NCBI GenBank assembly: GCA_017654855.1
Contig: CM030335.1
Location: 1,612,001-1,676,000 of the forward strand
Direction: 5' to 3'
DNA: 64,000 bases
DNA from: Podospora anserina
Taxonomy: Eukaryota
A program made the position numbers and the translations under genes. The notes under the pieces were generated by a model. That model saw only the letters and a program-made list of their open reading frames with translations. It did no database searches and had not been told where the DNA came from. Positions 1 to 6,861 of this stretch are shown piece after piece. Every line of letters begins with the position of its first letter. The first letter of the stretch is position 1.

Positions 1-1011
1 TTGAGCGAAAGGATCAGTCGTCATGGCGAAGTGCTCCATGTGAACTCCCTTGCGGTCATTCATCATCATGTCCATTGACTGGTGGTGGGCAGGCTCGCTA
101 TCCATGGTGGATTCACCACGGGGCATCATGAACTCGCAGGCAGCGGCACCGAAGGAGTAGATCTCGAGCTTGCACATCTTCTCAGCGGGCAGGTCGGAGC
201 AGAGCTGAGCCATGGCCTGGGAGACGAGGACGGCACTATCGTTGTGGCAAAGGACGACGCAGCGGTGCATAGAGTCGTCGAGGAGAGCAGTGCGCATCTG
301 GGCGTAGAGGTTTCTGCGGACTTGGCTGGGCATCACCATGCAACGCTGGAGCATCATGCACATCATGTCGAAAGGCATACCCCAGGTGGGCATGCAGATG
401 CACATCATGGGACGGTTAAACATGCGAGAGAGCATAGGAAGGGCTTGCTGATGGCAGTGGCGAGAGCTTGTGTCGGTTAGTTGTGGTCTCTAAACACACC
501 AGGCAAAGAATGAGAGGACAAACCTCATACCCATCCCGCCCATGAACATCCACTTCTCATTGTCCATCTCCGGGCCCATCATCCAACCCTCAGACTCCAT
601 GGGGCACATGTGCATCTGCTCTCTGCCGTTGAGCATCCAGCACATGCCCATGACCATCAAGGCACAGGTGCACATCCACATGGCGAACATGGCACCAGGC
701 ATCATCATCCAGAGCGGGACAGCCATAACCATCATGCACATCTCCATGCACGTGAGCATGGTGTGTATCATCATGTCTCCCATGTCGGCCCAGGACATAT
801 GCTTGCGCTGGGTGAGCATGGCCCAGCACATGTTGGGCATCATTCGCATCATCTGCATTATTTCCTGCCACATCATTGACCACATTGGCTGCTGAGATCG
901 AGGGGTGGTACCGCAGGCGCCATCGCAAAGTGGTGGGATGTAGGTGACGGGGGTAGCCATCATCGACTTCATGGCGGCGGGCTTCATGTTCTTGTTGGCC
1001 ATCATGGGCAT
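1..1011 (-). CDS. Extremely Met/Cys-rich membrane protein related to a conserved fungal alpha/beta-hydrolase-like family; 3' end lies outside the window
   Basis: ATG at 1011 (AACATC ATG). Intron 523..467 (GTTTGT...CTAAC...CAAG) joins exon 1 in frame to an exon 2 that stays open to base 1. The product shows EKWMFMGG, LSRMFNRPMMCICMPTWGMPFDMM, CVVLCHNDSA, KLEIYSFGAAA and HMEHFA, which match in order the motifs I recall for that family (E.W.F.NG, L...F.RP..GIHN.T.G..FD, VV.I.HSQG, KLEVYTFG.AA, HIEHYA). Confidence 0.85.
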
Positions 1012-4000
1012 GATGTTGGGGTATGAACCCGTTGTTGGTGAAACCGCAAGAGATTCAGGTGGCGAGAATTGGCGCATGACCTTAAGGGCGAGTAAAACGA
1101 ATGTGGTGTAAGGAGCGTGGTGGTGAGGCAACGAACATGATGGCGCAATCTGTGATGATCGACTCGTTATAACTTTGAGGCAACGCGTCTTGGTGATTTG
1201 TGCCACTTGTTTTTTCCTCCATTCCAAACAGTGAATTCCCTGAGCCGTGCAGCCGTCGCAAGAGAGACGGACTGATACCGACCACCTGGCATTCCAGGGT
1301 AGCCAGCATCTGGCGGGCAAGCAACGTTAGCAAAAATGTAGGCAATTTCCAGTCTGCTTGTTCCAAGTTCCTAGCGTGTTGACTTATCAGCAGTCGCGTA
1401 CCTTTCCTGAGAAAGACGAGGCGCGTCTGGACCCGACAGAGCAGACCAAGCCAAGTAAGGGAGAGAATGCGGGGGTAAAATTGTTCAATAGGTCAAGATA
1501 AGTAAAATATGAGCCAACTTTATCTGCTCTTGGAACAATGACAGACATTCCGTTGTGCAGAGCTGACATCCTTTTTGATCACAGTAACTGTGGTCAGACC
1601 CCCACGTCGACCACACTGTCAAAGAAGTTGCATGTTTCCAAAGTCGGTCGTCCCAGAGCCGTTCCTTCCTCTACTTCACAGTCGACACGTCTCCCTTCTT
1701 GCCCAAAGTGACACACACGGGACTTGACAACTTCCGAGCCGGAGACACTGACCCAGAGTCTCCACCGACCTCTGGAGGGGTTTCTTCTGTAAGTCTCCCA
1801 CCCCTAGGGACATCATCCCGCCCTCCCCCTCACGGCGCCTGAACTCATCAAGACGAGTCTTTCAGGCCCGTGCTCGCTCGTCACAGAGAAGTAGGTGATA
1901 GCTTCAACCATTACCGGAAACCGTTCTTGGATGTCACCAGCTAATTACTGAAGTTTGTGAACACCGCGGGGATTTTCTCCCCTTCTGCGCGATCCCATCG
2001 AGCAACAGCTCTCCTCTCTGACACAGTCGACAGGTCACGTATTCTGCTGGGCATCGTCATATATATTCTATCGCCCTCAGTGTTGCCCATGATATCCGCC
2101 GCTTGTGCTTAGATGATGATGGCGGCGTAACATAGCGCTTCTCCGCTCAATTCCGCCTGTCAACGAGACACATTTACAGTGCTGTCGGAAGTGTTTGGCG
2201 TAATGCTTCACTTTTACCATCGGACGATGCGCTGATCTGCTCTGGTTTGGGACAAATGCAGCAACAACACGGCCCCAGGGCTCGCTAGAGAAGTGTCACC
2301 CTCCAGCAGAGCAAAAGGACACCGACTTGCATGGGAGATGAGAATCTCCGGTGCCACAACATGCCCCATATATGAACCAACTCCTCAGCCGGTATTCTGG
2401 CTTCACTTGCCGCCAAACCTCCTTCGACATTCTCTTCAGCAGTCTCGCATTCAACGTGAGGTTGGTATCAAATCTCCCGGTCAGCTACCATGAGCCCTTC
2501 ACTCGCTGGCGACATAGTCCGAAATGATATCCGCCGCGACAATGGAGTGGTCCTTCCCGTCCCACAAGCTTGGGCTGGTGTTTTTTTATTTCGGGACGCC
2601 TATATGAATCGATGCGCACGATCATACCCTGACGATCCATCCTCCCCGCAAGTTGTCACGTTATGTGCCTGTCAATCTGCCTGCCGCCCTGGGTAAATCA
2701 GCCCCGCGAACGTCACATCAGCCACCACCCCTCTCCGTCCCGATCACTTATACGTTCCCGGGGAGAACAGGAGGTCTCTTCCGTAATCATATTGACGTGT
2801 CTAGCAGCGCTTCTCTTCCGTGCAGTCCGGCAGGCTCTCCACCCCTGTGCCCTCCTTTTCCGGCCGGCCCTGGCGAGATCTCTGTGCTATGTCAGTTCGC
2901 AGCGGAACGGTGTGGCTGCTACCCAGGTTTTCTCGTTGATTTTCATGTTGATCAGGAACAGATATTTCCCGCACGAATGATTTTCTGGTATCCCATGCGA
3001 CCACCTCTAGCTGTTGGGTTTGTTCAAATCACTTCTATGCTTTATCGGAAAATAAAAATCGACATGGATTGCGGTTGGATCTGGCAGGAGAATCAGGCTT
3101 CATAGTCGGAGAATGGACCACCTATCCAGATTTCAGCAGCGCTCTTCAGGCCTAATGTTTTCTCTTGACATCATTGCGTTGCATCACTCAATAACTGAGA
3201 CCTCGACAGGATGTAGGTAGAGGGGCCGGGATATTGAGTTCGCTGGTTTTCTCAACGTTCCATCAAAGAGACGGTGAAAAGGGGCACCAATGGGAAATTT
3301 TCTCTTGTCTCTGGCCGAACAGGACCTCCCTCTTGGCGGCTGAACACCACATCCGTGGATGTCTGATCATAAGGGCCAGCAGCCGCGGCATATTTGTCTA
3401 CCGCGGCATATAGGAGTCTGCACATTGGGAAACCTGTTTGCCTTCACTTCATGGCATGGCTTGAGCCAATGGACGCCCGAACAACATAACATAGTGCCTG
3501 ATTCTGACTATCTGGTTACTTTGTGGTGAGTTGGTACCTACTATATGTTCATTTACTGGGTTATCTATGATCAGCACGACTCTTTCCTATTCTTGCCAAG
3601 TACATGAGCGGGTGTGCTGAAGCTATCGTGAAGGCCAGAGCCACCAAGAGAAGTCCAACCTCGAAGCACGAGCTACTTTATTCTCATGCCAGTTGACATC
3701 ATCTCTGCCAAAAGTAGAGACCTCCGAGATGCAACTAGGACCTTGCCACAACCAACATCTCGATCCCTTCACGAAGAAAACTTGGAATAGCGTCGCAAGC
3801 AGAAACTGGAGACATGGGCTCTGCTGCCTCGAGATCAGAGACTCTATCGAACATACTGTTTCGATGGAGGTCTCTGTGGAAGACAACCGCGCGATCAAGT
3901 CCGACGACGACGATAAATAGAGGCTTCATCTCCTCGTTTTGGACACCATTCTTCTCACCAGCAGTAGCAAGCACCAGCAGCACCAGCCTCTCTCCTGATC

Positions 4001-4059: not shown

Positions 4060-4806
4060 ATGAAGACCGCCATCTTCTCCCTCCTTGCCCTGGCCACCTC
4101 GTCCCTCGCAGGGCCCGTCGTGGCGGAGAGCCAGCTCTCTCCCCGCCAGCTCGAGAGCCAGGCTGATCAGCTCGACACTCTGCTTGCTCTTGTGCAGACC
4201 CATACCGGCAACATTAGTACGCCACGCCTTTCACCTTCACGTTCCACCCCTTGCTGACATTGACCACTTCACCAGACTCCACCACCGCCGCGGTCCAAGA
4301 CAACCCCTCCGTCGACCAGCAAAACGCCGCCGCCGCCGCCCTCGCCCCCGACTTCAACGCCATCACCAGCGCTCTCACCTCGGCCACCACCCTCCTTGCC
4401 AAGCGCGCATGGGAGGACACTGTTATCTTTGCCCGCACCGGCGGCGATGACAAGGATGGTGGCCACGGCGGCGGCAAGGACGGCCCGAATAAGTCCTGCG
4501 CTAAGGAGTGTCTCCTTGTCAAGATTGAGCTCTTGGTTTGGGAGATTGCTTGCACGATCAAGTTGGTGATTATCAAGCTTGGGTTGGGTAAGCTTTCCCA
4601 GCTGGACCAGAAGAGGGGGGGAAGTGATGCTAACAAGGGAAATAGCTTGCGTCCTCCAGATTCTGACTCCGTTGTTGTTGGCTCTTGTTGGGTTGATCAA
4701 GGCTCTTGATAAGGTTGTGCTGGGGTTGGTGATTGTGGTTAAGGCGCTGCTGCACACTATTTTGGGGACTGTGGCTGGGGCTTTGTTGGCGCTTATTATC
4801 TGGTAA
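4060..4806 (+). CDS. Small secreted protein with a very hydrophobic Leu/Ile/Lys-rich C-terminal half (3 exons)
   Basis: Signal peptide MKTAIFSLLALATSSLAG. Introns 4217..4275 and 4588..4645 (GT..CTGAC/CTAAC..AG) splice in frame. Stop TAA 4804-4806. ATAAATA upstream at about 3913. Confidence 0.85.
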
Positions 4807-5563
4807 GGTGGTGCCAGAAGCTTGTGGCTGGAAGAGAGAGGTTGCTATGATGGGGTTGAGAAGTGCGGTGGATAATATGTAATACATGCTTTGCTGGTGG
4901 AAATCGAAGGAGACGGCTTGGGGGCTGGTTGGGGATGGGGGGTCGCTTTGCAGAGTTGATGATGCTGGGTGTCATATCTGTCGTTTACGCTTCGCTTCGT
5001 TGTTGTTGGGTTCTTGCTAGCTACATTATTGCAGTAGTTTACTGTCGTTAATCTCAGTCTTCTCCAATCTTGGCAGCTCGACCTGCTACAGTGACCGTGG
5101 TTGGTGATATGCCTACCTAGTATGGAAAGGCTATGGATCCATAGTCCACTCAGGTAGGAAACAGGAAAGCACCAAGGATTTGGTTGATCAGGAAACGCCC
5201 AGCACGTGTTGAGATTTGAGTAGCCACTGGCCAGCATGCCCACAGCCGTCGTCATGCCGGTCATCACCCGGCAACATTTGTCGAGGAGTAACCCCGTGAT
5301 GGCAAGACAGTGGGCCTATATATACCCCAAGTCTGCTCCAAGCAACCAGCGAAGTAGCTAACGTAGCTAGATTCATTGATTTAGTAGCTCAGTGATCAGT
5401 ATCTGAATCCACACTGGCTGACCATCAGTATGAAAGTCCGGAGACCACCATTAGAGCTCTTCGCTTCAGGTAGTGGGTTCGATCCCTTTATAACTACCTT
5501 TTTTTTCCTTTTCTTTCGACTTTTTTTTTATATCAACACTTGCACAATTTTCCCAACAGTGAG

Positions 5564-5771
<208 letters not shown>

Positions 5772-5997
5772 TACAAGAGAGAGAAATGTGATTAATTACA
5801 TATCATTCATTACCTGTCCAACCACTTACGTACAAGAAAAAAAACGCCCGGGTCCAACCTGCGACCACACCGCACTGGGTATTACCTCTCTTCGCCGTCA
5901 TCGTCGTCGTTCACGATCGGCATACACCTCGCCAAATTGCAAGTTTTGCATGCTTTCCCTCTGCCCATTCTCCCCGTTCAAGTTACTATCCTCCCCA

Positions 5998-6861
5998 TCA
6001 CCCCTCAACCATAAACTTAGGCCCACTAACCACCACCGCCACAGCCCCCAAGTTCATCTCGGGGCTCATCTCCGGTAAATACCCCTTCAACCAGCAATTT
6101 CCTCCCACCTTGGGTAATATCGTCGTCAGGTTTGCACTAAACCCCACCCCAACACACGTGTTGTTCCGTGCTATGTTGTTGTAGATCGCGCAAGCCTTTA
6201 TGCAGTCTTCAAAGGTGTAGCTTGTCATCCCTGTCAAATCCACGCCTACTCCTTTGAAGTCCATCATGCAGTTCACGTCGAACGACCAGCTGTTTGTGCC
6301 CAGGGTGATGATCTGCCGAGAGATGGCTATGCGGCCGCAGTCGAAATCCAGAAGGCCGAGGCGGGGGACGGTGATGGCTTCGGGGCCGGTGGTTTGGGTT
6401 GGGGAGGGAGGAGAGGTGATGGTTACTGTTGTGGGGAGGGGACAGAGGGAAGATTCACTGTGGTTGGTGGTTAGTGGCTCGTTAATAGGAGAGAAAGGCT
6501 GGGGGAAGAGGTACCTCCGTGCGTTGGCCACTGCTGTTGTCCCTGCTACTCCGCCGACGATTATGGCGATGAGACTCACCACCGCTAGTGCTACACTCAG
6601 GAAGAAGGTTGGTCGACGAAAGCCCCATATTGTTGGTCCGGTGTTGTTGTCCTTGTCTTTCCCACCTTTGGTGGTGAATTCGCTGATGCCTTCCTCTTTG
6701 TCTCCAGCTGATGTCGTTGAGAACTCGTACATCCCCAAGGGGCTCTTTGGCGGCCATTTCTTCGGACTCCAAGGGCCGGGGGATTGAATCCTGAGTTGGT
6801 TCCGGCGGAAGATGTGAGAGAGGGACTTGACCGGTGGCCCGACTGCTTCTGGGGCGTCCAT
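5998..6861 (-). CDS. Single-pass membrane protein with a C-terminal Cys-rich apple/PAN-like domain
   Basis: TM segment FFLSVALAVVSLIAIIVGGVAG after WGFRRP, then a Ser/Thr/Pro stalk, then C..DF...SYTFEDCIKAC...C.GV.F...GNCWLK. Probable in-frame intron 6514..6458. Confidence 0.8.
   Translation of the reverse strand: MDAPEAVGPPVKSLSHIFRRNQLRIQSPGPWSPKKWPPKSPLGMYEFSTTSAGDKEEGISEFTTKGGKDKDNNTGPTIWGFRRPTFFLSVALAVVSLIAIIVGGVAGTTAVANARRYLFPQPFSPINEPLTTNHSESSLCPLPTTVTITSPPSPTQTTGPEAITVPRLGLLDFDCGRIAISRQIITLGTNSWSFDVNCMMDFKGVGVDLTGMTSYTFEDCIKACAIYNNIARNNTCVGVGFSANLTTILPKVGGNCWLKGYLPEMSPEMNLGAVAVVVSGPKFMVEG

Follow-up and report, generated by a model that had tools for sequence, protein, structure and literature searches.

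The window, by which we mean the whole 64,000-nt stretch analysed (G000:C5:1612001-1676000, from a 36-Mb genome), begins inside a gene on the minus strand that extends 525 nt past the window's left end. Recovery of the full gene, which the earlier note on this DNA had proposed, gave a protein of ~514 residues encoded with one 57-nt intron and a stop codon outside the window. The features of the gene and its upstream region are as follows.

1..466, minus strand: coding exon 2, alpha/beta-hydrolase core; stop codon at G000:C5:1611476-1611478, 525 nt beyond the left window end
13..15, minus strand: conserved Asp, D336 in 514-residue numbering (at least 90% conserved in alignment A4)
235..246, minus strand: degenerate nucleophile elbow HNDS, at the place of HSQG in active-looking relatives
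467..523, minus strand: GT..AG intron, phase 2, 57 nt, in the same codon as in the HSQG paralogue and at locus L044
524..1077, minus strand: coding exon 1, 184 codons plus 2 nt, 48 Met, start ATG at 1077 by alignment to orthologous starts; encodes a short disordered head, the conserved TYIPPLxDGACGT, an amphipathic helix and a hydrophobic helical hairpin
628..792, minus strand: hydrophobic helix pair, residues 96-150 (helices 96-125 and 128-150, pLDDT >90; hhalign 91.9% to the paralogue's N-terminal exon)
1167..1171, minus strand: TATAA box candidate, 45-65 nt after GGAATG, as also in L010, L011, L012, L015, L017/L018 and L023
1220..1225, minus strand: GGAATG (CATTCC on the other strand), TEA/AbaA-type candidate, positionally conserved in the orthologous upstream alignment
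1290..1295, minus strand: second GGAATG site, from the pattern count
1310..1401, minus strand: upstream intron, 92 nt, in a longer 5' transcript form
1464..1469, plus strand: third site, AGAATG, in opposite orientation, from the pattern count
1546..1551, minus strand: fourth site, GGAATG, from the pattern count

Of ten donor/acceptor pairs tried, donor GTTTGT (523) with acceptor AAG (467) yields a 492-residue frame from the ATG at 1011. The exact 57-nt skip is present in contigs of all three RNA-type runs (X1, X2 and X4, from three studies), which by this splice hold processed RNA, and is not seen in the DNA-type run X18. The gene is therefore transcribed and spliced, and the silence that the earlier note had named as an argument against its reading was not found. 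A canonical-looking donor, GTATGA at 530, was ruled out, as the reads splice at GTTTGT. Alignment of orthologues places the conserved start at the upstream ATG 1077 and not at 1011, which adds 22 residues to give 514. The 92-nt intron was seen in run X2 only, with 27 letters on the short side, and suggests that transcription can also begin farther upstream.

Among the neighbouring genes we recognised no sulfur or metal gene cluster. A divergent gene at ~4060-4709 (plus strand) encodes a small protein of secreted appearance that matches neither Pfam nor the Atlas; a homologue in the same arrangement, with three RGAATG sites upstream, is found at L004, and this is the only neighbour in common with an orthologous locus, in one orthologue. 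Upstream of the gene lies a single-pass protein with a weak PAN-domain match (6001-6861, minus strand), and just downstream are two similar genes for Ser/Thr-rich single-pass membrane proteins (L085:5137-7544, minus strand). Between genes, at ~5560-5780, a long (ACA)n and then (TCA)n microsatellite produces a spurious poly-Leu/poly-Met frame.

The 514-residue protein contains 101 methionine residues (19.6%) and 25 cysteine residues. In the 492-residue frame there are 100 Met, 25 Cys and 12 Trp; Met and Cys together make up 125 of the 492 residues, far above the proteome average, which classes the protein as sulfur-rich. The hand counts of the earlier note were accurate: exon 1 read from 1011 has 47 Met in 162 codons, and the in-window part, estimated at about 70 Met in ~317 residues with many Cys, comprises 318 codons, 72 of them for Met and 19 for Cys. 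The window background is 2.0% Met and 1.2% Cys (23 long frames totalling 10,059 residues, some of them shadow frames), and the binomial p of the excess is ~1e-58 at an assumed 2.5% Met. Met is denser in the N-terminal hydrophobic exon (29% vs 16%), MxM and MxxM runs are numerous, and His is not enriched (2.6%).

The protein is not a simple repeat, as had been noted, since its whole length can be aligned to a family of folded proteins. Systematic replacement of Leu, Ile and Val by Met had also been claimed; this is true for about half of the Leu columns, but "systematic" is too strong. P0003, a near-identical database copy of the query used for the substitution counts, has Met in 31 of the 64 columns in which 19 normal-Met orthologues have Leu, and in 6 of 18 Ile, 11 of 33 Val, 9 of 52 Ala and 1 of 13 Phe columns. 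Cys takes the place of Leu, Ser, Ile and Gly in the aligned columns. The variable loops have gained Met, and so have the putative membrane helices and the core strands (CVVLCH, MMCICM), with a parallel increase in Cys.

We looked for a mutational source of this composition at synonymous sites. The TpA/ApT ratio is 0.21, the opposite of what RIP produces. At synonymous codon borders the figures for C ahead of G are 44/78 vs 156/206 in the gene and 818/1784 vs 2459/3831 in the window background, i.e. CpG is avoided at codon borders to the same degree in both. Codon bias is strong (C3 53%, A3 7%). RIP and CpG decay were rejected as causes of the Met load on the first two of these grounds. Given the TpA/ApT ratio, the CpG use and the C-ending codons, the sulfur bias lies in the protein and not in the DNA; synonymous sites carry no special mutation signal, and the composition is no mutational artefact. 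No other Met-saturated gene was found among 17 genomic Met-run pattern matches by ATG density (16 have a low density and one is the antisense of a His-rich transporter), in a genome screen, not a proteome count, that comprised ATGTGC-type and MxMMxM matches and one tandem ATGTGT pair, with other ATGTGT matches left out and one pattern swamped by microsatellites.

Two AlphaFold runs gave the same confident fold (pLDDT 80 and 76; pTM 0.83 for the first model), in which three long N-terminal helices are followed by an alpha/beta hydrolase core with the central parallel sheet and nucleophile elbow typical of this fold; loops and tail have low confidence in both models. The listed Foldseek matches are all alpha/beta hydrolases (best E 0.004), as are nearly all VIA rows, and the best structural row is Obc1 (5ikz; Z 11.8, rmsd 3.6, 215 aligned). 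In the models the hydrophobic hairpin is a probable membrane or lipid-droplet anchor, and the HSQG paralogue has such a hairpin too.

With a low-Met orthologue as query, one paralogue of normal composition and with an HSQG elbow was found in the genome, at G000:C6 (L003:757-2517, minus strand); by its sequence it looks like an intact Ser-Asp-His hydrolase. The homology extends over hairpin and core (BLASTP E 6e-10; hhalign 98.4% and 91.9%), and in each of the two genes the eighth codon past W-x-F carries a phase-2 intron, the paralogue's intron being read from sequence and not from RNA. Judged by these alignments, the gene is a paralogue of the fungal HSQG family; the hydrolase-like ancestry and the kept fold proposed earlier are supported by BLASTP, hhalign, the shared intron and the models. 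By profile search the relatives at E ≤0.001 number 961, and 150 of these were listed. No Pfam family, DUF676, Lipase_3 and DUF687 included, scores above its curated cut-off with the query; relatives reach sub-threshold scores (e.g. P0171, DUF676, 18 of 20.3 bits). Neighbours in the ESM Atlas carry the label "putative DUF676", and some UniRef names read "Fungal lipase-like domain". A sequence search of solved structures matched the elbow region only (best E 0.0035). For the HSQG family (961 representatives), neither a curated Pfam model nor a recorded function was present among the matches seen.

The earlier note had read HNDS as a replacement of the HSQG elbow, and alignment to the paralogue agrees. 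The nucleophile Ser is absent from the query, as is the putative catalytic His, which we infer to be that of a Gly-His motif after the last strand; both absences support the claim that the protein is catalytically dead, as far as sequence can tell. D336 may be the sole retained member of the putative Ser-Asp-His triad, in the role of the acid. Among 23 aligned rows, the 15 of HSQG type all have both HSQG and Gly-His, the three HSTG rows all keep Ser and lack Gly-His, and the five Ser-less rows all lack both. Among the relatives the elbow forms a series: HSQG; HSTG/HGTG; HNTG/HNxG; HNDS/HNHS. Asn or Asp is unlikely to be a substitute nucleophile, as the elbow position varies within the clade (HN, HH, HG, HD, MN, QN). 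Against a pseudoenzyme, Ser is back at the elbow (HSDS/HSDG) in three of the 99 homologues listed, the environmental sequences P0030, P0034 and P0040.

The Ser-less group forms one clade (74 of 86 rows, SH-aLRT 100 in a quick tree), with named members from Xylariales, Glomerellales, Diaporthales, Ophiostomatales, Coniochaetales, Magnaporthales and Sordariales; the named HSTG/HGTG rows we take to be Leotiomycetes. Both groups have new C-terminal motifs in common, and those of the clade are DRxxAEKRExAAM, KRLSWTGL and LEMARxGCxxCxG. A CxxC near the C-terminus (C477 and C480, at least 90% conserved) is present in low-Met orthologues as well and absent from the Xylariales rows. Podospora and its kin supply the nearest named proteins among the 99 and 120 matches listed; no Neurospora, Sordaria or Hypocreales (Fusarium, Metarhizium) name occurs there, which is not proof of loss. 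Six Ser-less rows (P0143, P0153, P0155, P0158, P0295 and P0296, including those from Gaeumannomyces) are 580-965 residues long and match piecewise, suggesting large inserts or extensions in their lineages. P0163 (Chlorociboria, HGTG-type) is annotated as a fusion with an N-terminal HRI1 domain, possibly a fusion of gene models.

On this alignment, catalytic death is old and common to normal-Met orthologues across Sordariomycetes. The idea that the dead paralogue was kept because of its sulfur is not supported, as the Ser-less clade has mostly normal Met (1-4% in the core) across this class. Since, in addition, the sister clade already lacks the putative His, an older role independent of sulfur should have come first, probably the binding of a lipid or a partner protein.

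Met content varies widely among orthologues of this one fold, from 1.5% to 25%. Of the 99 homologues listed, 20 have at least 15% Met and 24 have less than 5%; normal Met in orthologues, which would have counted against the earlier note, is thus found in the latter but not in the former. The composition is conserved in that high Met occurs in multiple Sordariales lineages: Podosporaceae, the Schizothecium group, Naviculisporaceae, Lasiosphaeris hirsuta, Podospora appendiculata and P. didyma, as well as one row adjoining the thermophilic Chaetomiaceae, with low values interleaved on the tree. In 279 well-aligned core columns, 17 high-Met Sordariales rows have 11-17% Met and 3-7% Cys; the values in 19 outgroup rows are 0.8-3.6% and 1.1-3.3%. 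A further 16 Sordariales rows have 3.5-8% Met in the core. About 35-65% of Met sites are common to high-Met Sordariales lineages, four to five times the random expectation. An enriched ancestor followed by parallel gains, or by losses, would fit this pattern on the quick tree, which was flagged for composition bias, has open forks and does not distinguish gain from loss. Outside Sordariales, Diaporthe rows show mild loading (7-9% Met). P0090, P0099 and P0290 have Met/Gly/Cys inserts, and because the length of these varies, the amount of Met appears to matter and not its position. Low-complexity Met/Gly/Asn inserts recur in the same loops and tail, and P0090 also has Cys clusters.

The clearest independent case of Met/Cys loading appears to be a sequence of Leotiomycete type:

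L044, 150-1190, plus strand: single, partial gene on a metagenome contig that ends inside a Cys-His tail; no Pfam match

L044 scores 122 bits against P0173 and 64 against P0003, in keeping with its place in the HSTG/HGTG clade; its closest named relative is P0162 (Phlyctema), with 2.6% Met. Its own Met content is ~17% (55/331, a hand count on a partial gene); other members of this clade have 1-3%, except P0198 at 7%. L044 shows the same Leu-to-Met and Ala-to-Cys swaps and the same intron as the query gene, and its tail contains four repeats of Cys-x2-Cys-x4-Cys-x-His type, resembling metallothionein or a zinc-binding tail. From these comparisons, Met/Cys loading is later than the catalytic loss and has arisen at least twice independently.

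Upstream of the gene, the alignment of 13 orthologous regions reveals a conserved TTGGAATG ~45-65 nt ahead of a TATA-like box, a GGAATG-TATA spacing derived from the same sequences on which it is reported. At 12 distinct loci, a count of RGAATG in either orientation over the 500 nt ahead of the start gave 4 (query), 4, 1, 3, 4, 3, 3, 3, 3, 2, 3 and 6 sites, where the window predicts 0.67 per 500 nt; all 12 loci have at least one site and 11 have at least two. L021 is a duplicate of L005, and L010, L011, L012 and L015 are close kin; nine independent groups have 4, 4, 1, 3, 3-4, 3, 2, 3 and 6 sites, ~30 in total vs ~6 expected. As a rough control, 13 HSQG-type loci have 10 sites in the 500 nt before the match, in stretches that are partly coding and with two loci left out for incomplete site lists. 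The reverse complement of the site, CATTCY, is a term that occurs in the text of the AbaA papers PMC3769392 and PMC8557821. The genome contains one TEA gene. RNA contigs extend upstream beyond the two nearest GGAATG sites, which some transcripts could thus carry as upstream ATGs; a role as binding sites is a better fit than one as upstream ORFs, because the peptides are not conserved and some sites are reversed. The conservation of the motif suggests control of the gene by AbaA, and expression would probably fall in spore formation or in phialides. In Podospora, male gametes are made on phialides; to our knowledge, few AbaA targets have been described in this lineage. A search with the CYS-3 consensus gave a single candidate, at 1140-1149, which we rejected as being at chance level (0.81 expected per window) and conserved in no orthologous upstream region. 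This search revealed no link of the upstream region to sulfur regulation.

We tentatively favour the view that an ancient pseudoenzyme was secondarily loaded with sulfur and now serves also as a Met/Cys reserve in spores or gametes. The alignments show the first step: an HSQG hydrolase with a probable membrane anchor was duplicated, after which one copy lost the putative His, then Ser, and gained the C-terminal motifs. Driven by AbaA, this copy would have been made in phialides, conidia or spermatia, with a non-catalytic lipid- or partner-binding role at the ER or lipid droplets, a step we consider fairly probable. Several lineages, with at least two independent origins, then exchanged Leu, Ile, Val, Ala and Ser positions, buried strands included, and loops for Met and Cys, as the comparisons show; with no active site to keep, these positions were interchangeable, and selection is very probably the cause. 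The benefit may have been bulk sulfur, ~125 S atoms per chain, freed by proteolysis at germination or in sulfur shortage, a suggestion we offer with considerable reserve. A stricter version, in which repeated convergent Met/Cys rewriting of a dead lipase-like enzyme has made a dedicated, AbaA-controlled fungal sulfur-storage protein of spores or male gametes, is more doubtful still.

The reserve is ranked first because the involvement of both sulfur residues, at buried and exposed positions, and the elastic inserts fit selection on the number of atoms rather than on sites. Several observations go against it. A hydrophobic anchor is unusual for a store, and a store must be very abundant; the gene is kept by normal-Met orthologues, and Met is low in many Sordariales; the only candidate for sulfur regulation was at chance level; and the L044 repeats look more like metal sites. 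The roles considered here do not exclude one another.

An oxidant or electrophile sink at a membrane or lipid droplet, with Met sulfoxide recycled by MsrA/B and spore lipids protected, comes next, although we think it improbable. It would account for the concentration of Met in the N-terminal hydrophobic exon, and Met is an established membrane antioxidant in mitochondrial proteins, but that model predicts no parallel increase in Cys, and alignment and secondary structure place much of the Met and Cys in predicted, presumably buried core strands, which should make it poorly reactive.

Two further roles are less probable again, and about equally so. As a soft-metal buffer, the protein would use exposed Met, Cys and His side chains to bind Cu(I), Zn or Ag, in the service of spore melanin laccases or of detoxification. 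The MxM/MxxM runs, the C-terminal CxxC, the four Cys-His-type repeats of L044 and the Cys clusters of P0090 are in keeping with this. Met-rich loops are indeed present, but the greater part of the Met is distributed across the fold instead of forming a single exposed segment; His is not enriched, the CxxC does not follow Met content, and no metal-handling gene was recognised nearby. Alternatively, Met-rich surfaces and loops could coat lipid droplets or form condensates dissolved by oxidation, tuning the older non-catalytic function. Met-based redox switches are known in low-complexity domains, and the inserts that recur in the same low-confidence loops and tail would suit such a switch, which leaves the Met and Cys of the core strands unexplained.

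Neutral or mutational drift in a relaxed pseudoenzyme (by RIP, methyl-CpG decay or slippage in ATG microsatellites) gains from the loss of catalysis, the repeat-like nature of some loop inserts and the patchiness of Met on the tree, but is very unlikely, as RIP would remove ATG and raise TpA, CpG use matches the background, the codons are strongly biased, Met has a single codon and mostly replaces Leu, about half of the Met sites are common to high-Met lineages, and the other Met-run matches in the genome are not Met-saturated.

We found no Met-rich or sulfur-storage protein of this kind in ascomycetes in the main texts searched, supplements lying largely outside the search. Neither Pa_4_3770, the presumed locus number given the cluster-mate tag QC761_403770, nor any of six orthologue tags had a main-text match. 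The gene is absent from the small supplementary files of PMC3495915, which evidently do not include the large tables, and from the main text of bioRxiv 10.1101/2024.12.09.627484. A characterised orthologue that explains the composition, a possibility raised by the earlier note, was likewise not found in the main texts searched; expression-table supplements, outside this search, may bear on expression and novelty.

The HSQG family shares with the query its domain order, the hydrophobic hairpin, the KLE[IV]YTFG and HxEH motifs and the intron position; the query differs in lacking Ser, the putative His and the Asn of FING, in its own C-terminal motifs, and in having 20% Met as against 1-3%. The non-catalytic gibberellin receptor GID1 has the same fold (3ebl; Z 10.4, rmsd 4.7, 221 aligned, tied with many esterases) and an incomplete triad, but the resemblance is one of fold alone, and the query has no known ligand. 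With the AbaA (TEA/ATTS) regulon the query has in common clustered, conserved CATTCY sites in a genome with a single TEA gene, and would by prediction belong to it; on the other side, no orthologue from Fusarium, Metarhizium, Neurospora or Sordaria is named among the matches listed. The gene is a candidate AbaA target, and its host is a non-pathogenic model amenable to genetics.

Sulfur-rich stores include the 2S albumins of Brazil nut and sunflower, delta-zeins and the Met-rich hexamerins of Lepidoptera. The query resembles them in that Met and Cys approach a quarter of all residues, and zeins are also hydrophobic; it differs in that no homology was found, its storage role is putative, and it is an enzyme fold rewritten residue by residue. 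Inactive stores derived from enzymes are the dipteran yolk proteins, which come from lipases, and plant vegetative storage proteins. Here the likeness, drawn by description and not by sequence, is the reuse of a dead hydrolase fold, for the query in a predicted reproductive stage; those proteins are secreted and not loaded with sulfur. Both kinds of store are thus already known in plants and insects, and the query would be a fungal variant with a putative role.

Sulfur-sparing isoforms, such as yeast Pdc6-type isozymes and the low-sulfur phycocyanin of cyanobacteria, reflect selection on elemental make-up with the fold kept, as may the query, which has gone in the opposite direction and gained sulfur to an extreme. 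If our reading is true, sulfur sparing has its counterpart in a "sulfur loading" that arose independently at least twice and has left, in nature, orthologues graded from 1.5% to 25% Met. With one fold, this range and at least two changes, the family offers a ready test of selection on elemental content, and it shows the extent of Leu-to-Met replacement that a globular fold tolerates.
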